Source: Candidatus Dojkabacteria bacterium | GTDB lineage: Bacteria > Patescibacteriota > Dojkabacteria > GCA-002793355 | Direction: 5' to 3' | DNA length: 64,000 bases | NCBI GenBank assembly: GCA_030583825.1 | Contig: CP129477.1 | Location: 446,308 to 510,307 of the forward strand | Position numbers and translations under genes: made by a program | The notes under the pieces: model-generated | Database searches by the model: none | Seen by the model: the letters and a program-made list of their open reading frames with translations, nothing else | Told to the model about the DNA's origin: nothing | In this document: in pieces, positions 12,290 through 44,560 of the stretch | Layout: each line of letters starts with the position of its first letter | Numbering within the stretch: the first letter of the stretch is position 1

Positions 12290-12309
12290 TTAACATCACT
12301 GTTTCACTC

Positions 12310-13248
12310 ATGGATAACTCCAATAATAATTCACAATTGTACGACTTGATCATTGTTGGATCAGGATTTGCAGGCTACACAGCAGGTATTTATGCATCAC
12401 GGTATAAAATGAAAAACCTCCTGTTTGGGGAAGTATTTGGCGGCCAGACATCAGAAGCACACATTATTGGTAATTATCCAGGATTCGAAGAAATTAAAGG
12501 GCCAGAGCTTATGAACCGAGTGAGAGAGCAAGCAAAAAAGCTCGGAACAGAAGAAATTCTTGAAAGAGTAGTCAGTCTTTCTCGAGCAGAAGACAATTCT
12601 TATGTTACGGTTACTACAAAAAGTGGCAAAACCTATGACGCAAAATATGTACTTCTCACAATTGGAATGAAGCGACGTAAGCTTAATGTTCCAGGAGAAC
12701 TTGAGCTTGCAGGCAAAGGTATCACATACTGCGCAACATGCGATGGATTCTTTTTCCGCAACAAAAAGGTCGTTGTCGTAGGAGGAGGAGATGCAGCAAC
12801 AACTGCAGCGCTCTTTTTGAGCAATATCGCATCTGAAGTCATTATGCTCGTTCGTGGAAGCCGTCTCAAAGGTGAGCAAATCTGGGTTGACCAGGTACTT
12901 TCACACGAAAAAATTAAGGTGCACTTTAATACGAAAGTTGAATCGTTTGTTGGAGATATCAAGCTTGAAAAAGTTATTACTTCCGGCGATGTATCAGAAG
13001 TCACAGCGGATGGGGTATTTATTGAAATTGGTGCAGAACCTGACGCACAATTTATTTCTGCATTAGGCTTGGAAGCCGATGAGCGTGGCCATATCAATGT
13101 TGATGTAACTCAAGCGACATCACAGGAAAGAATTTATGCTGCGGGAGATGTCACAAGCAACTCAAATCACTTTGAGCAATTACTTACAGCGGGATCGGAA
13201 GCATCTATCGCGGTGAACGCGATTTTCGAGAAAATCCAGACTTCTTAG
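12310..13248 (+). CDS. trxB: thioredoxin-disulfide reductase
   Basis: FAD GxGxxG (IVGSGFAGYTAG), redox-active CATC (YCATCDG), NADPH GGGDAA, C-terminal YAAGDV. Confidence 0.9.
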   Translation: MDNSNNNSQLYDLIIVGSGFAGYTAGIYASRYKMKNLLFGEVFGGQTSEAHIIGNYPGFEEIKGPELMNRVREQAKKLGTEEILERVVSLSRAEDNSYVTVTTKSGKTYDAKYVLLTIGMKRRKLNVPGELELAGKGITYCATCDGFFFRNKKVVVVGGGDAATTAALFLSNIASEVIMLVRGSRLKGEQIWVDQVLSHEKIKVHFNTKVESFVGDIKLEKVITSGDVSEVTADGVFIEIGAEPDAQFISALGLEADERGHINVDVTQATSQERIYAAGDVTSNSNHFEQLLTAGSEASIAVNAIFEKIQTS

Positions 13249-14170
13249 GCCTAAACTTGCCTGAAAAAGATCTCTTTGCAGAGTCTCTTGTTTTTTCTTG
13301 AGGACGATACGTTGTTCGATGACGTTTTTGCAGCGTATCCTGGCGAGACTTTAATACCATCGAGGCTCCTTTAATTTTCTGAGCGGATGCAGGATTCTTC
13401 TCTAGCAGGCGAAATATTGCTTCCCATAGCTCAAATGGCAACTCTCGAATTGTCGCATTCAACGGCACTTTCAAGAGAGAAAGTTCTCGATTAACCAGCG
13501 CTTTTGGCAAAAATGCGTAAAATCCTTCTGCTGCGGTTTTCCACCACCCTCCAAACATAAATGCAAGCAAGTTATCAACTATTCGAGCTTCTTGAATAGA
13601 TAATTGCCACTTTCGAGAAAACTCAACAACAACGACATTTACTCTCGGCTGTGGAATAAAGTCCTCACGCTTACAGCGATGCAAAATATCAGCATTCCAC
13701 TCAAACTTTACTCGAAGCGACTGCATGCTTTCTTTATCGTGTGGCTGACCCAAAAACCGATACGCAGCATCTCTTTGCATGAATAATACGGCACTCTGCA
13801 CATTCGAAGATCCAAATAATACCTTTTTTACAATATCAGCAGTATACGCAAATGGAATATTTCCAATCATCGAGTACTTTTCGTATAGGGGGATTTTCAT
13901 GAATCGCACGTCTCCTTTTACGACATTTACCCGACCTTGAAACTCTTTTTCAAGCATCTCAAAAAGCTGTTTATCAGGCTCAATTGCAACTATCTTTTCA
14001 AACTCTGGTAATAATGTGCGTGTTATCATTCCTTTTCCTGCACCGATATCCACGATAGGAAATTTTCTTGGCAATGATGATTTTTTAAGAATCTTCTCAA
14101 TAAGTTGTGGAGAGCGAATAAAGTTCTGCGATAGCGACAATGGCGTGTGGTATTGTTTTGGCGAATGCAT
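13205..14170 (-). CDS. Erm-type rRNA adenine N6-methyltransferase with Arg/Lys-rich C-terminal extension
   Basis: SQNFIRSPQLIEKI...VDIGAGKGMITRTL...AIEPDKQL...YSMIGNIPFAYTADIVKKVLF...REDFIPQPRVNVVVVEFSRK parallels ErmC block by block (SQNFITS / IGSGKG / AIEID / GNIPYNISTDIIRKIVF). About 75-aa basic tail whose last 44 nt overlap the trxB 3' end. Confidence 0.7.
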   Translation of the reverse strand: MHSPKQYHTPLSLSQNFIRSPQLIEKILKKSSLPRKFPIVDIGAGKGMITRTLLPEFEKIVAIEPDKQLFEMLEKEFQGRVNVVKGDVRFMKIPLYEKYSMIGNIPFAYTADIVKKVLFGSSNVQSAVLFMQRDAAYRFLGQPHDKESMQSLRVKFEWNADILHRCKREDFIPQPRVNVVVVEFSRKWQLSIQEARIVDNLLAFMFGGWWKTAAEGFYAFLPKALVNRELSLLKVPLNATIRELPFELWEAIFRLLEKNPASAQKIKGASMVLKSRQDTLQKRHRTTYRPQEKTRDSAKRSFSGKFRPKKSGFSRKSRSPR

Positions 14171-15612
14171 TATGTCAATACGCCAACAAGGTTAATTCCA
14201 AATAATACGAGGTAGCAACAAATGGCAAAGACTAATATTGTTTTTATGAGTATCCCCGGACGATACGCCTGCGGAATATGTTTAGTATTTGTAATGAGAA
14301 GTAAGATCGCCAGAATTGCCATTGCAAATGCATTAATTACTGCACCAACGATGATTAGCCAGAGAGGCTCAGAAAATCCAATGAGAAAGAGAATAATGCC
14401 AAAACTCATTTGTACAAGCACTGCTTTTGTATAGACATCTCCCAGTGGAACATGACGGAACTTACGAGAAATCCTTGCTGCAAGCGCTGTAAATCTTCCC
14501 ATAATATCAAGCGCTCCAAGTTGTACCGACATTAATGCAAATGCACCGATAATAACAAAGAGAACTCCAAAAATTGCTCCAGTACTGGCCGTGATAACCT
14601 GCGACTCAAAAATAATGAACTCAAAAGATTCCGGAATATCTGCCATTCCTTGTAACAATACGCGAGAGAGATAAGAAAGAATAAAGATCATCAAAAAGCC
14701 AAGAAGCCAGAAGACAATCGCGCTTTCCCGCAATTGAAAACCACGGGCTTTTTTAAAGTTAGCAATACTCTCTGGGTCATCGCTAATAACAATATTCTCT
14801 TTAATAGAGTCAACATGTTTTGGTGCTGGAGTATGCAATGACAACTTTTCTGCATACTTTGCGTTACCCGTTTCTTCTTCAATGACATAAAAACTCTGAC
14901 CAAGCAAAAAGTTTCCTCCAGTCCCTGCATATGCAAATGCTCCTAAGAAAACAGCAAAATCAAGCCCTTGTGGGAGTCCAAAATATCCATTTCCAATACC
15001 AACAAGACCTCTTGCAGCTTCTGCGATGCTATCAAGAGAAAAATACCTAATAAAAAGAAAGACGAGAAGCACAAAGCTAAATGGAACAACTATTTTCTGA
15101 ATTAACTCCACTTTCGAGTAGACATTTTTGCCTGCCAACAACAGAACCGCACAAAAAACAAGGATTCCAATAGCAACAAAACGTGAATATTCCGCAGGAA
15201 TACCAAAAAGATGAGAGAGTAATGCTGCAGCTGTTGCAGCAAATCCTGGCCAGCCAAATCCAATGAGTGTCGAGAAAATAAGCCAAAACGGTAAATACTT
15301 ATGGATACGGGCAAATCCATGCACAATGCTTTCCCCTTTCACCATTGTGTAGCGAGCAATCTCTGAAATAAGAACAAACTGTAATGTAATACCAAGAAGA
15401 GCTCCCCACAAGATTCCAAATCCATATTGAGAAGTCATGTACGGCCAAAGGACATACTCACCACTACCAATACCAAGTCCCAGTGTCACAAGGCTTGGGC
15501 CGATTGTTTGCCAAAAGCTTTTTGTAAAAGGTGGAAACTTCCTTACTTCTGCTGTCATATTGAATAAGAGTAGCATATTTTTCACAGTTTTGAAGAACCT
15601 TCTTTGTTCCAC
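14170..15612 (-). CDS. NRAMP-related divalent-cation transporter-like membrane protein
   Basis: 480 aa, ~11 TMs. N-terminal GPSLVTLGLGIGSGEYVLWPYMTSQYGFGILWGALLGITLQ resembles the MntH GP..a.iDPGN...G..FGY.LLW block but lacks DPGN. Confidence 0.45.
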   Translation of the reverse strand: MEQRRFFKTVKNMLLLFNMTAEVRKFPPFTKSFWQTIGPSLVTLGLGIGSGEYVLWPYMTSQYGFGILWGALLGITLQFVLISEIARYTMVKGESIVHGFARIHKYLPFWLIFSTLIGFGWPGFAATAAALLSHLFGIPAEYSRFVAIGILVFCAVLLLAGKNVYSKVELIQKIVVPFSFVLLVFLFIRYFSLDSIAEAARGLVGIGNGYFGLPQGLDFAVFLGAFAYAGTGGNFLLGQSFYVIEEETGNAKYAEKLSLHTPAPKHVDSIKENIVISDDPESIANFKKARGFQLRESAIVFWLLGFLMIFILSYLSRVLLQGMADIPESFEFIIFESQVITASTGAIFGVLFVIIGAFALMSVQLGALDIMGRFTALAARISRKFRHVPLGDVYTKAVLVQMSFGIILFLIGFSEPLWLIIVGAVINAFAMAILAILLLITNTKHIPQAYRPGILIKTILVFAICCYLVLFGINLVGVLT

Positions 15613-15813
15613 TTTGTTTCCACGGATTTAATTGATTTGTGGATAAATAGATATAGAGCAAAACGTTTCATTGTTGTTCCACGTTTTCTATAAATATGTT
15701 GATAACTCGCCCTAACATTCTACACGCTTGTTTCACTTGGGACTTTATTAGTAAAAAAAATACTACAAATAAAAAGGCGCTTAAATGCCAATTGTCTTAG
15801 TAGAAGAGAGAAT

Positions 15814-17154
15814 TTACGCTGTGAGAAGCGTTTTCAGAGCAAAAAGAAGGTCTTTTGGAACTCGCTTAGCATACGTTTTATTTGTAAATGCTCGGTATAG
15901 CCATACCAAACGCATTCTTTCTACAATTTTAGGCTCTTTTTTCTGATATCCGGAAATAAGGTCAAATGTACGTCCAAGACCAAATCCAAGACCGAATTGC
16001 ACACCTTCTTTTTTAAGACGATGAATAAACTTTTCCTGAGTTGGAGCAGCGAGACATGCAAAAATAAGATCAGGATTCTTCTTGGCAATATCCGCTTTTA
16101 CCGCAGAGTACACTTCGTCATTTTTCATAAATCCCACAGGTGGAGAGCTTATTCCAACAATGTTTTGGGCCATATGTGGATATGCACTCACAAAATGATC
16201 TCTCACTTTCTGCGCTGTTTGACCAAATCCACCAACAAAATAAATCGTAAAAGGCAACGAATCCTGGCCAATTTTGTTCATAAGCGAGACAAATACATCT
16301 ACACCGCTGACTTGCTCGATCGTTTGGTATCCAAGCGATTGTTTTGCGTATTTCACAAGAGGAGGATAGCCGTCTGCTGTCTGCAAAAATGCCTGTGCGT
16401 AGACTTCCTGAAACTCTTTATCGTCTTCTTCGATAAGCATGCGAAAATGATCCAAATTTGGAGTTACAACTGCCATTGGTTGAATAGTTTTACCCGATCG
16501 TTGCTCCTGAAATCGCTTTTCCAGTCGGCTAATGATCATTTGTATTGCTTCGGCTCGTGTTCCCGGAAAAACATTAACATATTTCTGCCGAAATAATGGA
16601 TACTTATGCTTCCAGGAGAACATAAAACTTTCTTCTATCTCCTTCCATTCTTTTATAAATTGCTGTGCTGAGTCGTTTTCAACAAGAATTTCCGGCATTG
16701 CCGAGGTCAATCGCAATCTTCCCGTTCCATTTGTGGAAGTTTTGTATCCTTCTACAATATCGAAGATCTCGCTGTTTTTATCGTGCTTAAATGTAATAAG
16801 TGGCCGGCCAAGCGTGCTAACAAATGATTGCTCTGTATCAGAATGAGGAAGGCGAATCGTAACCGTATCTTGGAATAAATCTTGAGTAAAGTACTGTACG
16901 CTTTTTGCAAGAATAACGACTTCAAGAGGAGAAATCCACATATGTGAAAGGACTGCCTGCTGTTTTTTTGTAATTGTTCCAAATCTAAAAATATCACCCA
17001 CAGAAGGGAGCATTACAGCAATGTCAGACTGTTGTTTTACAAATTCATTTACTGCTTGTGATTGGAGTGCTTCAGGAAAAATTCCCAAAAAGGATTCCCC
17101 CGCACGCTCGATAAGAAATGCGGTAGGAGACTGATCAGCTGCTGTTACTTTCAT
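15814..17154 (-). CDS. WecB/TagA/CpsF-family glycosyltransferase domain fused to an unknown ~210-aa N-terminal domain
   Basis: C-terminal half (YFVGGFGQTAQKVRDHF...NPDLIFACLAAPTQEKFI...GLGFGLGRTFDLISGYQKKEPKIVERMRLVWLYRAF) matches the WecG/TagA core; N-terminal domain unassigned. Confidence 0.55.
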   Translation of the reverse strand: MKVTAADQSPTAFLIERAGESFLGIFPEALQSQAVNEFVKQQSDIAVMLPSVGDIFRFGTITKKQQAVLSHMWISPLEVVILAKSVQYFTQDLFQDTVTIRLPHSDTEQSFVSTLGRPLITFKHDKNSEIFDIVEGYKTSTNGTGRLRLTSAMPEILVENDSAQQFIKEWKEIEESFMFSWKHKYPLFRQKYVNVFPGTRAEAIQMIISRLEKRFQEQRSGKTIQPMAVVTPNLDHFRMLIEEDDKEFQEVYAQAFLQTADGYPPLVKYAKQSLGYQTIEQVSGVDVFVSLMNKIGQDSLPFTIYFVGGFGQTAQKVRDHFVSAYPHMAQNIVGISSPPVGFMKNDEVYSAVKADIAKKNPDLIFACLAAPTQEKFIHRLKKEGVQFGLGFGLGRTFDLISGYQKKEPKIVERMRLVWLYRAFTNKTYAKRVPKDLLFALKTLLTA

Positions 17155-17165
17155 GCTTGATTATA

Positions 17166-19007
17166 CTATCTTTGCTCAAGTTTCCGTAGTCTCGAGTAAT
17201 ATTTCTGTAATTCTTTGCCAAGGATGTCCGTTTCCTCAGCATTTTCATCTTCGTCTATCGCTCCCAGTTTATCGCGAAGTTCCTGAATCCTTAGTGTGAT
17301 CACTCCTTTTTTCAGCCTGCTTGTGGCATTTTGAAAATCTTTCACAACTTCGTCCGTAATTTCAAGGCTCATTGTTGCCTCAAGAGTACCGAGTTTTTGG
17401 ATAGTTGCTGCAATTTCAGTATCTTCTTGTATATTCTGTATATAGGCAGAATATGTATTTCCAATTGCTGTGTAAAATTCTGTTGCAATGCTATTCCAGT
17501 TTTTCTGCGTTCCATCGGGAAGAGTCGAAGATTTTAAAAAATCTTTATACGCAAGTGCAAACGAATACAGGGACAGATATAACTTTTTTTGAACATCTGA
17601 CAGGAAGTATTTTTCACCTCCTGGTTTTTTAGTGATAAATAACGCAAATAAGGGAAATTGCAGCATCAAACTTAATAAATATTCTGCTGTTGTCACTGCA
17701 CCTTGTCTCTGCTGAATTCCTTGCTGCAACTGCTCTGGCACTGTCCTTCGCTGCACAGAAGAGAGGAGTACTGACTCTTCAATATGAAGTCTTTGCGAAA
17801 ATTCTTTAATCAGCAGAGCTTTTTTCAGATCCGGCGCATGAGAGATGACTTCCAACAACTGTTGTAATTTCTTTTCAAAAAGAGAAAAATCCTTTTTCAT
17901 AACGGTTTCTAGTCCTTTGAGTGCTTCGTCGAAGAACTCCTTGGGTTTTTCAGCAGTTTGCTGCCAAAGTTCAGGGTTTTCCTTTACCAACTCATCAATA
18001 TCCTTAAATTGCGATGGAATAGAGAGAATATACGGTGTCATACCGATTGAAAGTGCCATTTCCACGCCACGGAGTAAAGACTTTTTGCCTGCAGTATCGT
18101 TATCAAATGCAAAGGCAATATTTGGAGTGATTCTTTTAACCAAAAGTAATTGAGTATCAGTTAGTCCCGTTCCCAATGGTGCAATAATGTTTTCTACACC
18201 TGCCTGTGCCGAGCTAATCACGTCGAGTTGACCTTCACACATAATTGCCATATCTTTTTGGCCAATTTGCTGCTTTGCCTGCGAAAATCCAAATAAAATA
18301 AGGCGTTTTTTAAATATTAGTGTCTCCGGAGAGTTCAAATACTTCGGCCGTTCATCTTCCGCGCGAATGACTCGACCGCTAAACCCAACCACTCTGCCTG
18401 AATTATCACTAATTCCGAACATAAGTCTATCTGTAAACTTGTCACGCTGTTTTTCGTTGAGTAATCCTGCTGCATACATTTCTTTTTGAGAATATCCTCG
18501 CTTTGTAAGAAACTGAATAAGGTCGTTTCCAGATCGTGGAGCGTACCCAATATGAAATTTTTCAATACTTTCTGCAGTAAGTCCTCTTTTTTCGAGTGCA
18601 TATTTCTTTGCATATTCCCCAACTTTGTGAGACATCAGCAAATGCTGAAAAAATTTATCTACAAGCTCATGCATTTTTCGCTGCTTCTGAATCTCTTTTG
18701 TTTGTGCGTCGTCACGTGACCGAGAAAGCGTTACTCCCGCTTGTTGTGCAAGTTTTTCTAATGCTTCCGGAAACTCAATATGCTCATATTCCTGCACAAA
18801 AGTAAAAATATCGCCGGTCTTTCCACAGCCAAAACACTTATAAATACCTAGTTGAGGATTTACATGAAAAGATGGAGTTCTTTCATTGTGAAACGGACAA
18901 TTTCCCATCCACGTTTTGCCCGCACGACGGAGCTCTACGTACTGAGAAACAACTGTGACTATGTCCAATCGTGATTTTATTTCGATAATATCGTCTTTTC
19001 CTGCCAT
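17166..19007 (-). CDS. dnaG: DNA primase
   Basis: CHC2 zinc finger (CPFHNERTPSFHVNPQLGIYKCFGCG), TOPRIM (MCEGQLDVIS...DND), 613 aa. Confidence 0.9.
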   Translation of the reverse strand: MAGKDDIIEIKSRLDIVTVVSQYVELRRAGKTWMGNCPFHNERTPSFHVNPQLGIYKCFGCGKTGDIFTFVQEYEHIEFPEALEKLAQQAGVTLSRSRDDAQTKEIQKQRKMHELVDKFFQHLLMSHKVGEYAKKYALEKRGLTAESIEKFHIGYAPRSGNDLIQFLTKRGYSQKEMYAAGLLNEKQRDKFTDRLMFGISDNSGRVVGFSGRVIRAEDERPKYLNSPETLIFKKRLILFGFSQAKQQIGQKDMAIMCEGQLDVISSAQAGVENIIAPLGTGLTDTQLLLVKRITPNIAFAFDNDTAGKKSLLRGVEMALSIGMTPYILSIPSQFKDIDELVKENPELWQQTAEKPKEFFDEALKGLETVMKKDFSLFEKKLQQLLEVISHAPDLKKALLIKEFSQRLHIEESVLLSSVQRRTVPEQLQQGIQQRQGAVTTAEYLLSLMLQFPLFALFITKKPGGEKYFLSDVQKKLYLSLYSFALAYKDFLKSSTLPDGTQKNWNSIATEFYTAIGNTYSAYIQNIQEDTEIAATIQKLGTLEATMSLEITDEVVKDFQNATSRLKKGVITLRIQELRDKLGAIDEDENAEETDILGKELQKYYSRLRKLEQR

Positions 19008-19009
19008 AT

Positions 19010-19561
19010 TTATGGTGAGATACTGCTATAGATAAGAAGGGCAGTACCATCAATCTCCAGCCTGTCGAAGTTTCGGCTGACATTTGCATTAGTTTGGAAG
19101 TATTCATCAAAAGCCTGTTTTAAAGCAATGTTTGTTTGTAACTCAAAGAGTCCTGGAATAGTAATGTTGTTCCAATGAACACGCGAGATTCGAATATATG
19201 GCTCATTTTCATTTGGCACAATGTCTGCTTGCACCCATACGTACGGATTTCTTTCAATAAAAAGCTGCATCTTGTTATTTTCCATTTTGACGCAAGAATG
19301 GAGTCCATCTTGCTCAAGAATATTATTGAGAATTGACTGAACCTCTCCCGCTTCAAGACGAAGCACTAAGTATGGCTCAGCGCTGGTATTTGCGACTTCT
19401 ACGCGGTCTTGTAGAGAAACAATGTCAATATCGGTACTTTCGATTGTACAGTTTTCCTGACGTCCGACTTCATACGAGATTCTTACAATAACGAAAAGGC
19501 CGGCAAGTAATACTACGAAGAAAATACCGATTGTGATGAAAATTTTACCAAGTCTTTGCAT
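19010..19561 (-). CDS. hypothetical N-terminally anchored protein
   Basis: 183 aa, one TM (IFITIGIFFVVLLAGLFVIV); 3-nt gap to dnaG suggests co-transcription. Confidence 0.4.
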   Translation of the reverse strand: MQRLGKIFITIGIFFVVLLAGLFVIVRISYEVGRQENCTIESTDIDIVSLQDRVEVANTSAEPYLVLRLEAGEVQSILNNILEQDGLHSCVKMENNKMQLFIERNPYVWVQADIVPNENEPYIRISRVHWNNITIPGLFELQTNIALKQAFDEYFQTNANVSRNFDRLEIDGTALLIYSSISP

Positions 19562-19575
19562 GCTTCCACATTATA

Positions 19576-19950
19576 TCATTCTCCCGTGGCTTTTCCCAAA
19601 GCGTAAAGGCCAATAAGTACGCACATCTTTCTTTTGCTATCTGCGGCAACTCCCGTGAGGTTAAGGACATCTTCTTCAGGAATATCTAGTTCCGAGATCT
19701 CTTTGCCCAGGATTTTTTCCGAGAGAAGCGACATAGAAGCAATACACAGTGAGCATCCGCTTCCTTCGAAACCGATCTCTTTCACTTTTTCCTGCGAAAT
19801 ATGTAAATATACAGTAATTTCGTCGCCACATGAGGGGTTAGAGAAGTGACCCTTGTGAGTGTACTTAGAAAGCTTTCCAAAATGGCGAGGATTCATGTAA
19901 TGGTCAACAATGCGCTCGTTATTAAAGACTGGATTTCCCGACATGTGCAA
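19576..19950 (-). CDS. IscU/SufU-like Fe-S cluster assembly scaffold
   Basis: NPSCGDEITVYL...GSGCSLCIASMSLLSE has the three scaffold cysteines in the NifU-N/SufU pattern. Confidence 0.7.
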   Translation of the reverse strand: MHMSGNPVFNNERIVDHYMNPRHFGKLSKYTHKGHFSNPSCGDEITVYLHISQEKVKEIGFEGSGCSLCIASMSLLSEKILGKEISELDIPEEDVLNLTGVAADSKRKMCVLIGLYALGKATGE

Positions 19951-19977
19951 TTATACTACGGTATGCTATCATAATGT

Positions 19978-20556
19978 ATGAAGTATTTAGGATTTCTTTT
20001 CAATATTTTAAATGGTTCTTTCTCCGTAATGGGCTTTTTCAAGCAAGTTATGATCGAAAGAAACATGATTTCCCACGCAAACAAAATTACCTCGGTAAAT
20101 ATCACGGCAATGAAGGTCTGGCTCGCTTGGGCAGCAGGAAACATTGTTCTTGGGGGAGTTCTTATCTTTTTTAGCAGCGGTATTCTGTTGGCATTTGCAG
20201 AGCTTATGGTTATTTGGAATATTGTCTCTGCAGTCTTAGCATTTCTGGGACTTCAGGTTGCAAAAAGTACAGCCGTAAAGCTTCTCGCTAACTTAAGCCC
20301 ATTGTCACTTATCCGTTATCTTCATTCTTTGGAGAAACTATTCGTATTTGGCGCAGGATTAGATATTGCATATTCGATTTTGGGAGTATATCTCATCGAA
20401 AAAGGAACAACCATTGAGAGCACAATGTGGGCAGGATTTGGAGCAGCAGTCATTGTCCAGGCAATGTTTTTACTCGGACTTGATAGCGTTCTCTATTTTC
20501 TTAACAGAAAGGCATCACGACAGGTATTCGCAGAGTTGGAAGAACCTGAAAACTAA
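19978..20556 (+). CDS. hypothetical polytopic membrane protein
   Basis: 192 aa, 4-5 TMs; start uncertain. Confidence 0.35.
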   Translation: MKYLGFLFNILNGSFSVMGFFKQVMIERNMISHANKITSVNITAMKVWLAWAAGNIVLGGVLIFFSSGILLAFAELMVIWNIVSAVLAFLGLQVAKSTAVKLLANLSPLSLIRYLHSLEKLFVFGAGLDIAYSILGVYLIEKGTTIESTMWAGFGAAVIVQAMFLLGLDSVLYFLNRKASRQVFAELEEPEN

Positions 20557-20597
20557 AGTTCTCTTACTAAATATTCACTAGGAATTTATCATCTCTC

Positions 20598-23156: not shown

Positions 23157-23462
23157 TTATGTTATGGCATTTATAATAATCGCACGAATAACAAACGCAA
23201 ACAGTACTATTGCAATACCAATAACGGCATTAACGATAATACCTCGAGCTTGTTCTACTTTCTTTGGATCGCCCTGGCTCATCATGTAAGTATATCCGCC
23301 ATAAACAATCAATCCAACAAAAAGAATCGAAAGCAAAGGAAGAACAACGCCAAGAGCGTTGGTTACAAGATCACCGATTGTTCCTGGTGCTCCAGGAGCT
23401 GGAGTAATTTGGCTCAAATCTATAGTTGCGCCTGCGTTTAAACTTGGAAGACGATTTGTCAT
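23157..23462 (-). CDS. TrbC/VirB2-like pilin-family protein (tandem copy 2)
   Basis: LIVYGGYTYMMSQGDPKKVEQARGIIVNAVIGIAIVLFAF; 6-nt gap to next copy. Confidence 0.6.
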   Translation of the reverse strand: MTNRLPSLNAGATIDLSQITPAPGAPGTIGDLVTNALGVVLPLLSILFVGLIVYGGYTYMMSQGDPKKVEQARGIIVNAVIGIAIVLFAFVIRAIIINAIT

Positions 23463-23483
23463 GACCTATTATACAGAAAAGTC

Positions 23484-23909
23484 CTAGCTAATGCCAAGTG
23501 TGCTGAAAACCATGGAAATAATTGCTGTTGCGGTTAAAATCAGTCCAAAACCGAGTAAAGCATTCATTATTTGTTCTTTACCATCTTGAATCTTTTTTGA
23601 TTCTCCGCCACTCATCATAACTTTGTATGCACCAATAACAACAAGTACTAATGCAACGAGGGCACCAACAACGCCAGCTGCGGCTGCAATTTGTGTAACA
23701 AATCCAACACCACCGGTACTTGTATCAAAACAAATTCCAAAGTCGAATTCAATACCGCTACATCCACCGGCGGAAACTGTATATTGAGGAAGAGTCCGGC
23801 CTGTAATAGTTGAAACTAAGCCCGGAAGTGCCTGAGAAACCACTCTCCCCACTGTAGTAAATGATTCTGGCATACTTTGTATTATACCATTTGCTATCCC
23901 TATTTTCAT
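23484..23909 (-). CDS. TrbC/VirB2-like pilin-family protein (tandem copy 1, longer N-region)
   Basis: VIGAYKVMMSGGESKKIQDGKEQIMNALLGFGLILTATAI; 2-nt gap to upstream methyltransferase. Confidence 0.55.
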   Translation of the reverse strand: MKIGIANGIIQSMPESFTTVGRVVSQALPGLVSTITGRTLPQYTVSAGGCSGIEFDFGICFDTSTGGVGFVTQIAAAAGVVGALVALVLVVIGAYKVMMSGGESKKIQDGKEQIMNALLGFGLILTATAIISMVFSTLGIS

Positions 23910-26138: not shown

Positions 26139-26621
26139 TTAAAGGCTCCATATCCAAACGCCTTGGATCATTATCTTCAAAACCAGAATATTTATCAAAA
26201 ACAAAATAAATAGTACGGCATCAACGATTTTTGTGCGCTGTAACGAAGAAATTTGGTAACAGATAAGTAAAAACACAAGGTTTACAGTAACGATCCCAAG
26301 AAGCATATATTGCATGACTTCCGCACCACCTGTGGCTAACTCGGTAAAACCGGCATAAAAAAATCCGGGAAACAAAAATATTTCTGGAACATGCTCTTGA
26401 ATTGAAAAGAATCCCCAAAACCTAACAACAATATACAACACCATACCAATGTTTATCCAAAGTGGGAGCTTTCCAAACAGAATCGCAAATGGAGAAAAGC
26501 GCATTTCAGATAAAGATTTTTTGAGTCGGATAACAAATTGAGACCACGGAGAAATAGAAACGCCTAATGACAATTGCTCTTCAGCTTCCGAACGGATCGT
26601 ATTGGGTGAATTTACCCCCAT
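26139..26621 (-). CDS. hypothetical membrane protein
   Basis: 160 aa, 3-4 TMs; 3-nt gap after dnaN stop. Confidence 0.4.
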   Translation of the reverse strand: MGVNSPNTIRSEAEEQLSLGVSISPWSQFVIRLKKSLSEMRFSPFAILFGKLPLWINIGMVLYIVVRFWGFFSIQEHVPEIFLFPGFFYAGFTELATGGAEVMQYMLLGIVTVNLVFLLICYQISSLQRTKIVDAVLFILFLINILVLKIMIQGVWIWSL

Positions 26622-26624: not shown

Positions 26625-27758
26625 TTAATCGTCTAACTTAAGAGGCATCATCAAGTGCAGAAATGTTTCCATAGTTGGCTGATAAAACACACCCGCTGCA
26701 TTTTTATTTATTGCCTTCAAGATGACTGTATCATCTTCAATGTGAGAAAGAATATCCAATAAGAATTTCAACTGGAAAGCGATTCGTAATGGTTCTCCAT
26801 CCATTTTGACTGGCATTACTTCTTTTACTTCTCCTACTTCTGGAACATTTGCTTCCATTGTGAGTTGGCCTTTTTCAAATCCCATAATGACTCGCTGGCT
26901 GATTGCTGACTGTGCGAACACACCAACTCTTTTTAGAGAATCAATAAGCTTTTGTTTTTCGAGTGAAATTTCAATTTGATGGGCTGCTGGAATTGCCTGC
27001 TTATACTCTGGAAAATCTCCTTCGATAAGACGGGCATAAACCTGAACATCTCCATATTCAATGACACAGTAATTGCCGGTTGCAGAAAGCTTAATAATCA
27101 CATCTTCATTCTCTGCAGTAGAGGAGACAAATGCATCTTTCATAATTCTGCTTGCATGATCCAATGCTTCTGAGCTAATAACAATCTGCTTTCGCTGTGA
27201 TGCTGTTTTAATCGGTACAGAAATCTTTGACAATCGGAATGTATCGAGCGCAACCATAGTCACAAATCCTGCATCAACTTCAATATTTACACCTGTAAGA
27301 ATTGGACGAATATCGTCTTTTGCACAGGCGAAAATTGTTTTATCCACCATTGTGATGAATGTTTCTCGAGGAATATCACACAAAACTTCGAGATCATTGG
27401 TTTCAAAAAGAGGAAACTCTTCTGCATCGCGGGTAGAAAAAGACGCACTTCCTGACTGAGATGTAACAAACAGCGTGTTTTTATCTAAAAGAACCTCAAT
27501 AGATTCTTCTTTTGGAACTGTATTTATATACTGAGAAAAAAGTTTTGCATTAATTGTGACTTTACCTTCATCGTCTGCTGAAAGTGCCGTTGCTGCCGAA
27601 ATCTGAACATCGAGATCTGTTCCAATAACAGTTACTTTGTTCTTTTCGACATCAAGAAGAATATTGCTGAGAACCGGGAGGTTCGCCTTTGAACTTACTA
27701 CTTTACTAACAAGGTTAATGTAACTTGCGAATATTTCCGCATTGATTCTAAAGCGCAT
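26625..27758 (-). CDS. dnaN: DNA polymerase III beta sliding clamp
   Basis: 377 aa; MRFRINAEIFASYINLVSKVVSSKANLPVLSNILLDVEKNKVTVIGTDLDVQI is the classic DnaN N-terminus; three-domain length. Confidence 0.88.
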   Translation of the reverse strand: MRFRINAEIFASYINLVSKVVSSKANLPVLSNILLDVEKNKVTVIGTDLDVQISAATALSADDEGKVTINAKLFSQYINTVPKEESIEVLLDKNTLFVTSQSGSASFSTRDAEEFPLFETNDLEVLCDIPRETFITMVDKTIFACAKDDIRPILTGVNIEVDAGFVTMVALDTFRLSKISVPIKTASQRKQIVISSEALDHASRIMKDAFVSSTAENEDVIIKLSATGNYCVIEYGDVQVYARLIEGDFPEYKQAIPAAHQIEISLEKQKLIDSLKRVGVFAQSAISQRVIMGFEKGQLTMEANVPEVGEVKEVMPVKMDGEPLRIAFQLKFLLDILSHIEDDTVILKAINKNAAGVFYQPTMETFLHLMMPLKLDD

Positions 27759-28366
27759 ATTCTCATCCTTAATCTAAATTACTATTGAGTAATTGTATCA
27801 CACTTATCCCTTTCTTTTGTTCTTAAGTTATTCATTATTTAATTGTTTCTTTTTTTAAGATGAAAGATAAATGAGCTACCCACATCTTAGTGTTATATAT
27901 CTATTTATAAAAATAGAAGTATTAATAGAGAGTGTGGGTAAGTGGAAGAGAGTAAAGAAAAAGTCCAGATCGCTGAATTAAAATAAACTATTTTTTCTGT
28001 CGGTAATTTGTGGATAAGTGTGGAGGAGCACTTTTAGTATTGTGGGGTTTGCTCTGAATGGTTCTTTGGAATTTTGTAAAAGATTGCTCTCTCTACCGGA
28101 ATTCCCGCAATAAACATAAAAAGTATGCTTATCAACAAGTTGTGAATACTTTACCAATAGGTTTCCATATCACTGCTTGTGTTATACACATGTTATCCAC
28201 AAAATGTAAAAGAGTCCCCAAGTTATGAAGAAAACATTCAACTTTTCTTTTTGCGCAAATTTGTACTATAGGAAAAGCATTTTATATATGCCACTAAATC
28301 TGAAGTATTTTTTCTGATACGTAAGGAAAAATTTTTGCGTGAAATCTTTTTTGCAATAGAGAAAGT
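27759..28366. promoter_or_regulatory. candidate chromosomal origin (oriC): DnaA-box cluster plus AT-rich unwinding tract upstream of dnaN
   Basis: 608-bp non-coding, very AT-rich (27781-27930). DnaA-box-like 9-mers: TGTGGGTAA 27933-27941, TGTGGATAA 28009-28017 (perfect), TTATCAACA 28127-28135, TTATACACA 28182-28190, TTATCCACA 28193-28201 (perfect), in both orientations. Confidence 0.5.
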
Positions 28367-30034
28367 CTACTTTTCCTCTGACTCTACCTTTTTCACAAGG
28401 GGTGTCACCTCTTTTAATGTGACACTTTTTGGTAATCCTGACCAATTCCATGCTACTTCATTTTGCTCACCAAATGTAATAGAAAGCTTTTCTGTTACTG
28501 AAGGAATAAATGGCCCTATCAAAGTGCGAAGAGCATACACAACCGCGACGGCTTGAGATACTTTATCTTTTGCCTCTGCATTATCTGTAATTTTCCATGG
28601 CTCATGCTCGTTTAAGTACTGGTTTCCAAATTGCGCAAGAGCCATAACCTCCTGAATCGCGCTTGCAAAGGAAACGTTTTCAAGTAGTGTCCCTACTTTC
28701 TCAAATGTTCGGACTATTTTTTGCTCGACAGCTGGATCAATAGCCGTAAATTCAAAGCTATCGCCAAATCTCTTTTGAGCATACGAAAGAACTCGGTAAA
28801 CAAAGTTTCCGAACGTTGCGACAAGCTCATTGTTATTAAGAGTAATAAGGTCTTTCCACTCAAAGTCTATGTCGTGGTTTTCAGGCGCGTAGCGAACAAA
28901 GAAGTAGCGTACAAGCTCAGGCGAGAATGTGTCTATTAATTCCTGTGCTGTAATGAATGTTCCTTTGCTTTTAGACATTTTTTCTCCGCGGATATTCAGA
29001 AACATGTTTGCGACAACATTGTAAGGAAGCTTTAATTCACGGTTTGTTTCTTCTCCTGGCAAAGGAGATTGCAATTCACTACCTGTATATTTCGAGTTAT
29101 ATGCAATAAGCTGTGCTGGCCAAAATAATGAATGAAATGGAATATTATCTTTTGCAATAAAGTAGTAGTGTTCGGCAGTGTCATCTTTCCAAAAGCTTTC
29201 CCATGCGCTTGGTGTTCCATTATTCTTTGCCCATTCAATTGCTGCTGATAAATATCCAATAACGGCTTCAAACCACACGTAGACAACTTTGTTTGTAAAT
29301 CCTTCAATTGGTACAGGAACTCCCCAGTCAATATCTCGTGACATTGCTCGAGGTTCAAGTCCTTCTTTTAGCCATGCTTTGCTGAATTCAAGGGTATTCT
29401 TTCTCCAATATGTTTTATCTTTGATATATGACTCTAGCGGTTTCTGTAATTTTGAGAGGTCAAAAAATAAATGTTCTGATTTTCTCATAACAGGCGTTGT
29501 ACCCGTAAGTTTGCTAACTGGATCAATAAGCTCTTCTGGAGTGAGAACGTGACCACATGAATCGCATTGGTCTCCTCTTGCTGGAATGTATCCACAGTAT
29601 GGACATTTACCTTCGATGTAACGGTCAACCAAGAATCTTTGGGCTTTTTCGTCATAAAACTGTTCAGTCTCTTTGCGGAGCAAGTAGCCTTTTTCGTCGA
29701 GGATTCGAATAAAATTTTGAGTGACTTCTTTGTGGTTTTCTGTGTGGGTATCAGTAAAGAGATCAAATGATACTTGTAACGTTTTAAAAATCTCCAGAAA
29801 GTTTTTGTGATTTTCTCTCCAAAACTCTTCGATAGGAATGCCTTTTTCTTCAGCCTTAACTGTAATTGGAGTTCCATGAGTATCGCTTCCAGAAACCATA
29901 AGAACATCATTTCCTTTCATTCTGTGAAATCGTGCAAACACATCGCATACAATATTTTGGCCGGCAAGATGGCCTATGTGCATTGGCCCGTTACTGTATG
30001 GCCACGACACTCCGATAAGAATTTTCTTTTTCAT
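28367..30034 (-). CDS. metG: methionine--tRNA ligase
   Basis: HIGH (PMHIGHLAG), KMSKS (KMSKSKG), Zn knuckle CPYCGY...CDSCG; 555 aa. Confidence 0.92.
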   Translation of the reverse strand: MKKKILIGVSWPYSNGPMHIGHLAGQNIVCDVFARFHRMKGNDVLMVSGSDTHGTPITVKAEEKGIPIEEFWRENHKNFLEIFKTLQVSFDLFTDTHTENHKEVTQNFIRILDEKGYLLRKETEQFYDEKAQRFLVDRYIEGKCPYCGYIPARGDQCDSCGHVLTPEELIDPVSKLTGTTPVMRKSEHLFFDLSKLQKPLESYIKDKTYWRKNTLEFSKAWLKEGLEPRAMSRDIDWGVPVPIEGFTNKVVYVWFEAVIGYLSAAIEWAKNNGTPSAWESFWKDDTAEHYYFIAKDNIPFHSLFWPAQLIAYNSKYTGSELQSPLPGEETNRELKLPYNVVANMFLNIRGEKMSKSKGTFITAQELIDTFSPELVRYFFVRYAPENHDIDFEWKDLITLNNNELVATFGNFVYRVLSYAQKRFGDSFEFTAIDPAVEQKIVRTFEKVGTLLENVSFASAIQEVMALAQFGNQYLNEHEPWKITDNAEAKDKVSQAVAVVYALRTLIGPFIPSVTEKLSITFGEQNEVAWNWSGLPKSVTLKEVTPLVKKVESEEK

Positions 30035-30136
30035 AGTTCTTGGTATTTTACCACCGGATTGGACAACCCGGCAATTGACCGTCTTACTCTAATCATATAT
30101 AATCAAATTAAGATAATTTATCTTTGTCATTTGATT

Positions 30137-30517
30137 ATGAAAAAATTTCTCGCAACAGTAGGAACAGCAATTGCCTATGTCAGCATGATCCCATCTACTT
30201 ATGCTGCGACAAACTGGGCACCAACGCAAATTGGAGACGCAAGTGTTGGCGAAATTATTCAAAATGTTTTGAACATTCTTTTGATTATTGTTGTTATTGC
30301 AGCAGTTATCTATATTACTCTTGCAGGTTTGAAATATGTAACCAGCCAGGGTGATGCAGGAAAAGCAAAAGAAGCACAAGCAGCAATCACTAACGCAATT
30401 ATTGGTTTAGTTGTTGCATTCGCAGCATACTTTGTTGTTACTTTCGTCCTTGCACAGCTCGGATTGAATGTAGAAGACTTCGATGTCGAATCAGTAGCTC
30501 GCGCACTGATTGCATAG
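30137..30517 (+). CDS. TrbC/VirB2-like pilin-family protein with signal peptide
   Basis: ATG at 30137 (MKKFLATVGTAIAYVSMIPSTYA|ATN). IAAVIYITLAGLKYVTSQGDAGKAKEAQAAITNAIIGLVVAFAAYF. The ORF-track 29807 start is an antisense extension into metG. Confidence 0.65.
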   Translation: MKKFLATVGTAIAYVSMIPSTYAATNWAPTQIGDASVGEIIQNVLNILLIIVVIAAVIYITLAGLKYVTSQGDAGKAKEAQAAITNAIIGLVVAFAAYFVVTFVLAQLGLNVEDFDVESVARALIA

Positions 30518-30544
30518 AATTCTTTAATTAGATTAGCATTTATT

Positions 30545-30576
30545 AAGAGGCTTTCTTCGGAGAGCCTCTTTTTTTA
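30545..30576 (+). terminator. rho-independent terminator
   Basis: AAGAGGCT-ttcttcggag-AGCCTCTT followed by TTTTTTT directly after the pilin-like gene. Confidence 0.6.
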
Positions 30577-30646
30577 TAAATTTTTCACCGCGATTGTATT
30601 GTGCGGCGATAATGTGTAATAAAAAAAGACGTGCTATAATTTCGCT

Positions 30647-30982
30647 ATGATAAATGCAATTGCCAAGAATCTTCCAACACTTCTCGCAATTAATGCGGGC
30701 CAAGTTATGCAGGGTACCCAAGAACCTCCATCACTTGCAGGCATAATTGCTTTGTTTATTACCCTTTTTAATACATTTGCTTTTACACTTGCACCGATTG
30801 TTATCATCGTTATGATTGTGTATTCAGGAGCCCAGCGAATGATGGGTGGCGATAATCCTGGCAAAGTAGCAGAAGCAAATGCTCGTCTTATGTGGACAGT
30901 CATTGGTGCAGTGTTGCTTTACTTAAGCGTGCTGCTTGTAAACCTTGTTGCCAGCACAGTTGGTGTCGCAACTCCTTTTTAG
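30647..30982 (+). CDS. TrbC/VirB2-like pilin-family protein
   Basis: IVMIVYSGAQRMMGGDNPGKVAEANARLMWTVIGAVLLYLSVLLV; same two-helix module. Confidence 0.55.
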   Translation: MINAIAKNLPTLLAINAGQVMQGTQEPPSLAGIIALFITLFNTFAFTLAPIVIIVMIVYSGAQRMMGGDNPGKVAEANARLMWTVIGAVLLYLSVLLVNLVASTVGVATPF

Positions 30983-31261
30983 TTTAGTAACAAAGGACTC
31001 ATAAAAAGGAATGCTCGGTTTCTTACGCTGAGCTTTTAACGGCACCCCTTGCCGAAAATATGAAATTGTTCATATTTTCCGCTACGGTTCCACTTTTTCA
31101 TCAAAATTCTTGCTGAATGCAAAAGCTCGCTGAAACCTGCGTGCTTTTTACTCATACTTTATTACTAAATGAGACTCTCGTATTTTTATTCTTCAGCGAA
31201 TAAACGGAATTTTACCGCTAATTATTCAGGTTACTATATCCTATATATGCTATAATAGAGT

Positions 31262-33517
31262 ATGAATGTATTGACTGCCCGTCGTACAACATTGTCTTTT
31301 CTCCTGAGCATTATTATATCCGGTATCATTATTGCTTCTATTCTTGTATTACACGGAGCATTTTCTAATACTGCATTTGCGCAAACTGAAGCAGAGATCC
31401 AGGCAGAGAAAAATCAAAAACAGAAAGAACTAAATGGTGTCATTGCAGAAATTAACTCGATTGTTGCATCACGTAACTCTCTTAGCACGAAAATTAAAGA
31501 GCTTCAGGCAGAAAAAACAAAGCTTGAAAACCTTGTGGCTGAAATGAATAAAGACCTCGCAGAAGCAGCAGAACAACTAAAACAGCAGGAAAAAGATCTT
31601 GAAACACTTTCTCAACAGTATGCTCTAAACCACGCTCTCTACTATTTGGAAACTAAGAAAAATGCGGGTGTAGTATTGTTTGAATCACGTGATTTGCGTG
31701 ATTTTCTCGACAGAATGCTATATTTTTCGGTACAAGACAAAGTGATTGCCACTCAAAAAGAATATATCGTTGCAAAGCAGGATGGACTCAAAAACCAAAA
31801 AGGAAATATTGAAGAAGAACAAAAAAAGCTTCAGGAAACAATCGAAGATGTAAATCTGAAACTTTCACAGCTATATTCTGAGCAGGAAGCATTGAATGCA
31901 AAATATAGTCAGTCATTGTCGGCAAGAAGAATGCTAACAAGCGATCTTTCAAATCTCTCCAAAAAAGAGCAGGAAATTCTTAACCAAAAAGCGCAGTCAA
32001 CTGCACCTTCGGGGAACTCAGGCTCATCGGGATCTTCCGGGTCATCGAGTGGGAGTGGAACAACAACAAATCCCGGCACAGTTATTACAACAAGAGGAAT
32101 TGATATTTTTGTCGGCAGCGAGCGAATTGCCAGCACAGATGCTGAAGTAAAAGTTCGAGCAAAAAATAACGGAAGTGTCCTTCTTAACAAAAGCTGTGGA
32201 GGATGTATGGCTCCGGAAATTGCTTACCAGGGATTTCTTGTATTTGATAAATCAAAGCGCCGCACATTCACTGGGGTAGAAGGAACAAAAACGGTAAACG
32301 TAATTAATGACATTAGCGTTGAACAGTATCTTCGAGGACTTGGAGAAATGCCTGCATACTGGGGAAGAAATGAAAAAGGTGGAATCGAAGCACTAAAAGC
32401 TCAGGTGGTTGCAGCACGAACATATGCCTATCGGAAAATGGAGAACTATAAAGGCATTGGCTTTGATTTATATGACACGACTGACGATCAAAACTATGTT
32501 GGTGTGAATAAAGTCGCAACCGGCGATGGTCAGCATTGGGATAGAGCAATCAATGAAACAATTAATATGGCAATCGTTGCAGGAGGAGTTCCTATTTCAG
32601 CATTTTATTCATCTAGTGCAGGTGGACACACAATTGCAACTGAAGAATCTTCAAGCTTTGGTAGTGTTACTTCTTACGCAAAAGCTGTTCCGGACAGATA
32701 CCAAACAAGCGAAGGAAACTGGAGAGACTATGGAGAAAATGTTCCAGATGAGCCAGGAACAGCAGAAACCTCATACTGGCTTCCTTCAGGCAACCGTGCG
32801 CTGAGTCCTGCAGAAGTTACTGAACTTTTGAATGTCGCTATTTTTCTTGATCCAGAAGCAGATGGAACACTTATTTCTGCTAGTCAGCGATACCGTGTGA
32901 CAGACCCTTCAAGCTCAGGATATCTGAATGCTCAGGCTCTTGCTGACCATCTTGGGCCAAATTCAGTACAAAGCAAAGTAGGAACATTAACGTCGGTAAA
33001 ACATGTCTATAATACTGGTGACCAGACTATTCAGCAGGGAACTAAAAATACTCGTTATTTGGAACTAACTGGAGATAAAGGGACAATGCGAATTAGCGGT
33101 CAGGCGTTTAGAACAGGGTACAACTTCCGATCTCCGGGAACAAATGTTATTTGGTCGTCTGCGAATTTACCGCTGTACGATGTCGTTCAGAAAGCAAATT
33201 GTAATGTCGGAGGGACTAATCATTCTCCATGTTGGGAATTTTGGTCACGCGGATATGGACACCGAGTAGGAATGAGCCAGTATGGCGCATATGGAAGAGC
33301 TCGCGCAGGACAGGACTACAGAACAATCCTGAAAGCTTACTATACTAACGTAGATATAGTACAATACTCAATCGGAAGGAATGTAAAAGTTGCAATTACG
33401 AAAGGTGGAAGCACTCAGTCATATATGAAATCTTCTCAGGAGATTGAAATTTATGAAGGAGGAAACCTTATCAGAACAGTTCCTGCCAATACGACAATTA
33501 AAATTGCTTACAACTAA
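31262..33517 (+). CDS. SpoIID/LytB-domain protein with N-terminal TM and coiled coil
   Basis: VEQYLRGLGEMPAYWGRNEKGGIEALKAQVVAARTYAYRKM...DLYDTTDDQNYVG and SRGYGHRVGMSQYGAYGRA match SpoIID/LytB motifs; residues 40-240 heptad-rich; Ser/Gly linker. Confidence 0.65.
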   Translation: MNVLTARRTTLSFLLSIIISGIIIASILVLHGAFSNTAFAQTEAEIQAEKNQKQKELNGVIAEINSIVASRNSLSTKIKELQAEKTKLENLVAEMNKDLAEAAEQLKQQEKDLETLSQQYALNHALYYLETKKNAGVVLFESRDLRDFLDRMLYFSVQDKVIATQKEYIVAKQDGLKNQKGNIEEEQKKLQETIEDVNLKLSQLYSEQEALNAKYSQSLSARRMLTSDLSNLSKKEQEILNQKAQSTAPSGNSGSSGSSGSSSGSGTTTNPGTVITTRGIDIFVGSERIASTDAEVKVRAKNNGSVLLNKSCGGCMAPEIAYQGFLVFDKSKRRTFTGVEGTKTVNVINDISVEQYLRGLGEMPAYWGRNEKGGIEALKAQVVAARTYAYRKMENYKGIGFDLYDTTDDQNYVGVNKVATGDGQHWDRAINETINMAIVAGGVPISAFYSSSAGGHTIATEESSSFGSVTSYAKAVPDRYQTSEGNWRDYGENVPDEPGTAETSYWLPSGNRALSPAEVTELLNVAIFLDPEADGTLISASQRYRVTDPSSSGYLNAQALADHLGPNSVQSKVGTLTSVKHVYNTGDQTIQQGTKNTRYLELTGDKGTMRISGQAFRTGYNFRSPGTNVIWSSANLPLYDVVQKANCNVGGTNHSPCWEFWSRGYGHRVGMSQYGAYGRARAGQDYRTILKAYYTNVDIVQYSIGRNVKVAITKGGSTQSYMKSSQEIEIYEGGNLIRTVPANTTIKIAYN

Positions 33518-44149: not shown

Positions 44150-44188
44150 ATTGCATCATTCTTTTTGTTCCACAAGGAGTTCCGGCAC

Positions 44189-44542: not shown

Positions 44543-44560
44543 ACTCCCCTCGGAACCCAC

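Follow-up and report, generated by a model that had tools for sequence, protein, structure and literature searches.

The closest described counterparts of the locus considered here, a 608-bp gap (27759-28366) between dnaN and metG in a 64-kb stretch of contig CP129477.1 from a Candidatus Dojkabacteria bacterium (the window, to whose first letter all positions refer), are chromosomal origins of replication (oriC) that carry a basal unwinding system (BUS; Richardson 2016; Pelliciari et al. 2021). According to the rules used here, which are taken from PMC8287927, a BUS combines a DnaA box with at most 2 mismatches and a weaker tandem partner with at most 4, a spacer of at most 16 bp, the GC-rich part of which averages 4 bp, and, downstream of the box, at least three DnaA-trios of the form 3'-NAN-5', most commonly GAT, on the strand complementary to 5'-TTATCCACA-3'. 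The supplement of that work gives the element of Bacillus subtilis as AATAGGTGT TTAGGTGT CCGG GATGATAATGAAGATGAT, with the trios GAT GAT AAT GAA GAT GAT, that of Synechococcus elongatus as AAAAGGTGT AAAAGGTGT CGGG GATGATGATGAC, with tandem boxes, a 4-bp spacer and GAT trios, and that of Escherichia coli as AATAGGTGT CCCGTCACGC TAGGATTAT, with a 10-bp spacer and few trios; DnaA-independent pathways are mentioned in the same work (PMC8287927). As for the genes beside an origin, adjacency to dnaN alone defines an accepted class of predicted and confirmed origins, a dnaN-linked oriC having been confirmed experimentally in Synechococcus elongatus PCC 7942 and Anabaena sp. PCC 7120, and Gao has proposed for the cyanobacteria that an ancestral dnaA-oriC-dnaN order was broken by translocation of dnaA (PMC4009838).

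Searches of the literature returned no described origin in the Dojkabacteria and no oriC architecture in the Patescibacteria. The dnaN-metG gap is very probably a chromosomal oriC of the type represented by B. subtilis incC, with dnaA no longer beside it. A preliminary description of the window had proposed that the gap is an origin which kept dnaN and lost its linkage to dnaA, with metG standing on the far side in the place expected of dnaA. These proposals have held up well. The gap is enriched in DnaA boxes, contains an unwinding module and a flanking AT-rich element, adjoins dnaN, is conserved in relatives and lies at a switch in both GC skew and gene orientation, with nothing comparable elsewhere in the window. 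The loss of linkage appears to be secondary, given that a sister clade still has the order dnaA-oriC-dnaN, and metG is confirmed as the present neighbour. The classical arrangement in which dnaA adjoins the origin spacer is found in that sister clade; in the window, the 28 kb to the left of the gap and the 36 kb to its right contain no dnaA.

Unwinding module and DnaA boxes of the dnaN-metG gap

The module had escaped the preliminary description and came to light when the gap was aligned with its counterparts in six relatives. In this alignment (A1), built from seven gaps in genomes whose DnaN is 45-100% identical, the conserved positions cluster in three pairs of DnaA boxes and in a short segment adjoining dnaN: of the 82 positions belonging to box pairs and trios, 26 are invariant, as against 6 of the 526 elsewhere (Fisher p = 2e-19). 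Conserved sites set in an otherwise scrambled spacer are the pattern that selection on binding sites predicts. On the dnaN-sense strand the segment reads TCTTCCAC TTACCCACA CTCT CTA TTA ATA CTT CTA TTT TTA and then passes into AT-rich DNA. Rewritten in the convention of PMC8287927, where the complementary strand is given 3' to 5', it becomes AATGGGTGT GAGA GATAATTATGAAGATAAAAAT with the trios GAT AAT TAT GAA GAT AAA AAT, an orientation that was verified against the B. subtilis entry in the supplement of the same work. Measured by the published rules, which the module surpasses by a wide margin, the proximal box has 1 mismatch and its tandem partner 3, the spacer is 4 bp long, and the seven trios lie on the correct strand and on the correct side of the box. 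A stricter scan, requiring a box with at most 1 mismatch, a spacer of at most 6 bp and at least 5 trios of which the first is GAT, returned one match in the 64 kb, namely this module, and no match in any of 100 simulated windows. The AT-rich stretch past the trios (Table 1) is probably the duplex-unwinding element and helicase entry zone, a role suggested by its position between trios and dnaN, which is that of the AT-rich element of B. subtilis incC (PMC6669920).

The boxes themselves are strongly clustered. Both perfect boxes of the preliminary description, at 28009-28017 (-) and 28193-28201 (+), lie where it had placed them, as do two of its three one-mismatch boxes (27933-27941, minus strand, and 28182-28190, plus strand), the third being found at 28129-28137, 2 bp from the 28127-28135 given there. 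In dinucleotide shuffles of the window 0.52 perfect boxes are expected, against 3 observed, two of which fall in the gap; with up to one mismatch allowed the corresponding figures are 17.2 and 24. Five of these 24 lie in the gap, where 0.163 would be expected (Poisson P = 8e-7), making it the window's maximum, with every other 608-bp stretch holding at most 3. The middle pair has the orientation of the proximal pair, forms conserved columns in A1 and has equivalent boxes in both of the clades described below, and the TCCAC core of the degenerate partner at 27941-27949 is kept in the window's clade. The single box at 28129-28137 is weakly conserved, being present only in L001 and L006 among the mapped loci. 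The distal pair (28182-28201) marks the far border of the origin.

The preliminary description fared less well on composition, as its stretch of more than 80% AT at 27781-27930 measures 76.7%; the richest 100 bp begin at 27828 and reach 81%, the joint highest value in the window, and the gap as a whole has 69.7% AT compared with 59.0% for the window. Its claim that the gap is the window's longest non-coding region is plausible, since the two larger stretches free of open reading frames (ORFs) both hold small genes: an ArsR/MarR-like 94-aa ORF at 12005-12289 in 11485-12309, and a 125-aa ORF together with a tRNA-Ile gene in 43985-44802.

With regard to mechanism, we infer DnaA binding, unwinding at this exact spot and a functional dnaA elsewhere, the course of events being drawn from the homology of the layout with that of B. 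subtilis incC (PMC6669920, PMC8287927). DnaA encoded elsewhere on the chromosome would bind the double-stranded boxes of the distal (28182-28201), middle (27998-28017) and proximal (27933-27949) pairs, with the distal and middle boxes helping to increase its concentration locally. ATP-DnaA at the proximal pair would then oligomerise across the 4-bp spacer onto the plus-strand trios at 27908-27928, and the resulting filament would stretch and capture the trio strand, thereby opening the 78% AT stretch at 27820-27907, where the helicase would be loaded. Forks would proceed to the left through dnaN and to the right through metG. The leftward replichore begins with dnaN, which lies immediately downstream of the origin, and transcription of metG would run head-on to the rightward fork. 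Given that the gap must also hold the promoter and ribosome-binding site of dnaN, the boxes may regulate dnaN too; an origin role and regulation of dnaN by the same boxes are not mutually exclusive.

The gap among the Dojkabacteria

Neighbourhoods of dnaN were gathered from metagenomes and from GTDB species representatives, the GTDB relatives being obtained with an alignment as query, as a search by DnaN alone gave none. Two groups result. Among the loci of the window's subclade, about 15 with DnaN at least 44% identical, none has dnaA within 10 kb of dnaN, and upstream there is usually a metG of like orientation, across gaps of 399-608 bp. The order metG-gap-dnaN is kept in L006, L007, L013, L008, L009 and L016-L019; in L012 metG is inverted, and in L020 it lies 8 kb downstream of dnaN. 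In the second and larger group, the linked clade (DnaN 30-34% identical, about 35 loci), dnaA stands directly upstream of dnaN across a spacer of about 455 bp.

The roughly 15 loci of the window's clade share one layout with the dnaA-dnaN spacers of some 23-35 loci of the linked clade. It consists of a distal pair in opposite orientation, one or more middle boxes facing dnaN, a proximal tandem pair, a spacer and trios. For instance, one module of the linked clade reads GTTATCTAC ATATCCATA CTCT CTA CTA CAT CTA TTA CTT. Between the module and the ATG of dnaN lie 68-205 bp in loci of the window's clade; for the linked clade the figure is 117-256 bp, with most values at 130-150 bp. In all of the 35 aligned loci, drawn from both clades, the spacer is 4 bp long and the first trio is GAT, and the central A is kept in 34 of them at trio 2, in 32 at trio 4 and in 35 at trio 5. 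Trio 3 (27920-27922 in the window) is free, with a central A in 15 of the 35, and the run is broken there in several relatives; this freedom may be a lineage-specific way in which the DnaA filament reads the strand, and trio 3 is predicted to be dispensable for strand separation.

The distal pair of the window is homologous to the sequence TGTGGATAA-nn-TGTGnnTAA of the linked clade, which is sited immediately past the dnaA stop codon. Upstream of dnaA the linked genomes have just 1-2 boxes, about 30-110 bp from the start codon, from which it follows that their dnaA-dnaN spacer alone serves as the origin, and it is the complete set of this spacer that the window's gap possesses. An ancestral dnaA-oriC-dnaN order would thus have been broken on the dnaA side in the window's subclade to give metG-oriC-dnaN, and, with metG in the place of dnaA and the architecture intact, the whole origin would have stayed with dnaN. 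The further step, that the initiator gene of this subclade has been transferred to the interior of a replichore, remote from every origin, while the origin keeps every one of its DnaA sites, is put forward tentatively, as a possibility somewhat short of even.

Three observations on the relatives may be added. L010 (17701-17951) and L011 (11565-11829) have neither a box and trio module before dnaN nor a dnaA nearby, and show box pairs and local skew minima (at 18,097 in L010 and 14,372 in L011) 2-8 kb downstream of dnaN; in these loci dnaN, too, may have become separated from the origin, and the lineages of L022 and L032 seem to show such a separation as well. In L009 and L015 a block at 15360-20585, 5-10 kb downstream of dnaN, encodes a serine recombinase, a Replic_Relax protein and an HTH_36 protein and is probably a mobile element integrated near the origin. 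The origin genes lie near the middle of the records L019 (CP129470.1, at 0.53 of its length), L175 (CP129478.1, 0.46) and L016 (BOKM01000001.1, 0.51), and these records have evidently not been rotated so as to begin at dnaA or the origin.

Skew, dnaA and alternative explanations

Cumulative G-C in the window is V-shaped, falling to about 27.5 kb, running flat to about 32 kb and then rising to the right end. Minus-strand genes predominate from 13 to 30.0 kb and plus-strand genes from 30.1 to 44 kb, and this divergent pattern of genes and skew is that of an origin and not of a terminus. The module sits at the left edge of the flat zone, where the resolution is about 4 kb, so the window's own skew supports the neighbourhood and not the exact gap. 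In relatives the minimum falls inside the gap itself, at 9,913 in L012, 9,890 in L016 and 9,932 in the complete genome L019, with dnaN starting at 10,001. In 9 of 12 loci of the linked clade it lies at the start of dnaA, about 1.8 kb left of the spacer. The minimum therefore tracks the nearest switch in gene orientation, and a single head-on gene, dnaA there and metG here, is enough to displace it.

Where, then, is dnaA? DnaA is generally encoded by Dojkabacteria. Among the window's ORFs of at least 150 aa, none matches a DnaA family, and a six-frame tblastn search with DnaA gave no match there either, the same search having detected dnaA in 65 other loci. A 446-aa ORF at 15814-17154, beside a second small pair of boxes, turned out to be a WecG-type glycosyltransferase and not DnaA. 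A protein search with DnaA of the linked clade produced, among the matches listed (at least 120), only proteins of that clade, with at least 64% identity. Neither of two known JGI contigs of the window's clade was among the matches listed in a metagenome scan with the DnaA candidates P0246, P0256, P0250, P0244 and P0249, and no genome of this clade was among those listed for a profile of P0241-P0244; P0413, from a 1.04-Mb genome, was considered as a dnaA of the window's clade and proved to be of the linked type.

A dnaA that stands apart from dnaN is found in L176, a 376-kb contig whose DnaA is named Dojkabacteria by NCBI and which may or may not belong to the window's subclade, its GC content being 33.7% against 41%. 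The gene order there (region 9745-12407) is His_Phos on the minus strand, then dnaA, a Sua5/TsaC-like gene (tsaC-like), dnaE and efp. Cumulative skew climbs steadily over 21 kb, with a brief dip at the one minus-strand gene beside dnaA. Three boxes surround the start of dnaA, one of them perfect and 67 bp before the ATG, and there is no trio module. The preliminary description had named a denser cluster of boxes beside dnaA at another locus as evidence that would speak against it; looked for at the related L176 only, no such cluster was found. The arrangement in L176 is what an origin at dnaN predicts for a relocated initiator gene. Past the dnaA stop codon of L176 there is also a GC-rich, hairpin-like sequence, CCTGCCCGCCCG...CAGGCAGGCGGG. 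Among DnaA-like proteins of a library clustered at 50% identity, the representatives P0245, P0247, P0248, P0251 and P0243 (585-1990 aa) match the AAA+ domain in two stretches, which suggests inteins or fusions, and a 613-aa type of Dojkabacteria DnaA has about 130 aa of low-complexity sequence inserted in domain II.

Several points weigh against placing the origin in the dnaN-metG gap. The published rules for a BUS, applied loosely, are unspecific in AT-rich DNA, giving 75 matches in the window as against 62 +/- 8 in simulated sequence, which is why weight is placed here on the strict match and on conservation. The 35 aligned loci come from related genomes, and their counts are not independent events. 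As the window genome's dnaA was not found, a second and stronger box cluster elsewhere is possible. Finally, the window's skew reaches its minimum at 31,642, which is 3.7 kb right of the module, a least-squares fit puts the breakpoint at 31.4 kb, and skew alone would indicate the divergent region at 30.0-31.3 kb.

Of the alternatives, the one that survives best, although it would be surprising, is that the boxes form a DnaA-responsive promoter or operator regulating dnaN only, with the true origin elsewhere, for instance beside the relocated dnaA, which the searches above did not find for the window genome. The dnaN promoter must lie within the gap, promoters of replication genes commonly have DnaA boxes, DnaA regulates the dnaA-dnaN operon in B. 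subtilis, and the orphan dnaA of L176 and the dnaA genes of the linked clade each have 1-3 boxes upstream, as would befit autoregulation. Regulation of this kind, however, needs one or a few boxes, and not three tandem pairs over 270 bp together with seven phased trios at a fixed 4 bp. Moreover, the homology of the layout extends over the whole dnaA-dnaN spacer of the sister clade, where no other cluster lies nearby, the switch in skew and orientation maps here, and exactly so in L012, L016 and L019, and the single orphan dnaA examined has neither a skew switch nor a module.

A second alternative, with very little probability, accepts an origin in this neighbourhood and moves it 2-3.5 kb to the right, into one of the divergent intergenic zones at 30035-30137 or 30983-31261. 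Beyond the skew minimum and breakpoint just given, it draws on the switch in gene orientation at 30035-30137 and on a stretch of 74% AT at 30073. Yet no box with at most 1 mismatch occurs in the divergent region or anywhere from 29597 to 32502, nor is there any BUS-like match; the skew is flat from 27.5 to 32 kb and so does not discriminate, the offset is explained by the single head-on metG, and L012, in which metG is inverted, has its minimum in the dnaN gap. That the gap is instead a relic origin or a datA-like site titrating DnaA, in a lineage that lacks dnaA or initiates otherwise, is just as improbable: dnaA-independent replication is known in some cyanobacteria and endosymbionts, and dnaA was found neither in the window, nor within 10 kb of dnaN in about 15 relatives, nor on large contigs of the window's clade among the matches listed, but those searches covered the best listed matches only and are not taken as absence, a dead origin would not hold GAT trios and their spacing invariant at 44% DnaN identity amid a scrambled spacer, and the skew still switches at the gap. 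It is likewise very unlikely that the subclade has lost dnaA and fires a conserved origin with another factor.

Setting, significance and relation to known origins

The features of the probable origin at dnaN are collected in Table 1. A protein identical to the window's DnaN carries the annotation 'DNA polymerase III subunit beta' at NCBI (Candidatus Dojkabacteria bacterium). The organism is present in the metagenomes DRR779146, DRR859392, DRR859400, SRR24948965 and SRR29109021. The dnaN leader is in part an insertion specific to the window, a segment missing from the other six sequences of A1. Within it TGTGATACAAT, at about 27789-27799, is probably an extended -10 element, judging by its sequence; a consensus scan found no full sigma-70 match in the leader, and scans of the gap with promoter and terminator consensus sequences gave results at or below shuffle expectation. 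No Rfam family reached its gathering score in the gap, nor was a tRNA or a conserved ORF found there, the sole weak Rfam match, to L20_leader at 30486-30582 (E = 0.16), lying outside it. Local alignment of the non-conserved segment at 28202-28366 to DnaA C-termini, judged against shuffles, gave no convincing remnant of a dnaA 3' end.

Table 1. Positions of the features in and around the dnaN-metG gap of the window
Feature	Position	Strand	Description	Basis
dnaN	26625-27758	-	377 aa, DNA polymerase III beta clamp	TIGR00663 full length, 238.6 bits (cut-off 137.65)
dnaN leader	27759-27819	-	Shine-Dalgarno AAGGA about 9 nt before ATG	Read from the sequence
AT-rich stretch	27820-27907		78% AT	Composition
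Seven phased DnaA-trios	27908-27928	+	3'-GAT AAT TAT GAA GAT AAA AAT-5', read from 27928	
Spacer, proximal box to first trio	27929-27932	-	4 bp, CTCT on the dnaN-sense strand	
Proximal DnaA box TTACCCACA	27933-27941	-	1 mismatch; faces trios and dnaN	Its positions invariant in A1
Degenerate tandem partner box TCTTCCACT	27941-27949	-	3 mismatches; 8-bp offset from proximal box	
Middle tandem pair	27998-28017	-	TTATCCACA, perfect (28009-28017), and TTACCGACA, 2 mismatches (27998-28006); 11-bp offset	
Box TTATCAACA	28129-28137	+	1 mismatch	
Distal tandem pair	28182-28201	+	Opposite orientation; TTATACACA (28182-28190) and TTATCCACA (28193-28201); 11-bp offset	
Non-conserved segment	28202-28366		165 bp, from distal boxes to metG stop codon	Alignment A1
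metG (methionine--tRNA ligase)	28367-30034	-	555 aa	NF001100, 589.3 bits (cut-off 587)

Other observations concern the surroundings. A perfect 11-nt inverted repeat, CACACTTATCC and GGATAAGTGTG at 27799-27809 and 28012-28022, ties the dnaN leader to the middle DnaA box, the leader copy falling inside the window-specific insertion. A 160-aa ORF at 26139-26621 (-), starting 4 bp past dnaN, has no family match; an ORF of 155-160 aa occupies the same site in the window's clade and in L010, and thus represents a conserved partner gene of dnaN with no assigned family. The third perfect box of the window (15638-15646) and a one-mismatch box (15697-15705) lie in a 201-bp gap at 15613-15813, just upstream of a 480-aa ORF (14170-15612, minus strand) without a Pfam or NCBIfam match. 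This site has the second-highest box density in the window (3 per 608 bp) and aligns poorly with its counterpart gap in L008; it could reflect a DnaA-regulated gene or a chance pair. The region at 30.0-31.3 kb encodes two small proteins resembling type IV secretion system (T4SS) pilins, and T4SS pilin-like genes flank the origin, with a VirD4/TraG-like coupling protein nearby (23157-23909, 30138-30517, 30647-30982, 41525-43984). The presence of T4SS genes near dnaA and dnaN has been remarked upon in Patescibacteria (PMC12102498), which fits the T4SS genes around the window's origin.

An origin in this gap would provide an annotation at the level of bases, comprising boxes, spacer, trios and unwinding zone, for an uncultured lineage of the Patescibacteria, and would extend the Bacillus type of basal unwinding system to the Candidate Phyla Radiation. 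Genome starts and origin calls based on dnaA would be wrong for this subclade, for which the dnaN-linked site should be used instead, and the same applies to growth-rate estimates from origin-to-terminus coverage. If dnaA has indeed moved into a replichore, the subclade would represent a natural experiment on the linkage of dnaA to its origin, bearing on gene dosage, on timing and on autoregulation by way of the distal boxes adjoining the dnaA stop codon, in the setting of ultra-small, slow-growing episymbionts. The outcome is already known from cyanobacteria, and the biology is not surprising to a specialist. The value lies in the annotation and in the comparison of linked and unlinked origins within one class, the presence of both states there dating the break and offering a clean comparison.

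How does the gap relate to the origins that have been described? In E. coli oriC is sited between gidA/mnmG and mioC, some 40 kb away from dnaA, and has its boxes clustered on the flank of an AT-rich unwinding element. The two would be alike as DnaA-dependent origins that do not adjoin dnaA, but the E. coli origin is not beside dnaN, uses IHF and 13-mers, and is unrelated in layout. The cyanobacterial oriC resembles the gap in that it adjoins dnaN while dnaA is elsewhere and in that the S. elongatus element combines tandem boxes, a 4-bp spacer and GAT trios. It differs in belonging to another phylum, in representing an independent event and in its box consensus, which is TTTTCCACA rather than the TTATCCACA of the window. 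In addition, linkage to dnaN is almost phylum-wide in cyanobacteria, whereas in the Dojkabacteria linked and unlinked states occur within one class.

With B. subtilis incC the gap shares the order and orientation of the boxes, the 8-bp tandem offset (that of boxes 6 and 7), the 4-bp spacer, a first trio GAT and the AT-rich DNA that leads on to dnaN; trios 4-5 are identical (GAA GAT), and distal boxes lie upstream in both. There are also differences. The upstream gene is dnaA in B. subtilis and metG in the window, and the third trio is unconstrained in the Dojkabacteria. Furthermore, the incA/B box cluster upstream of dnaA in B. subtilis has no sign of a counterpart in the Dojkabacteria sister clade, such that the origin in this lineage appears to be monopartite.

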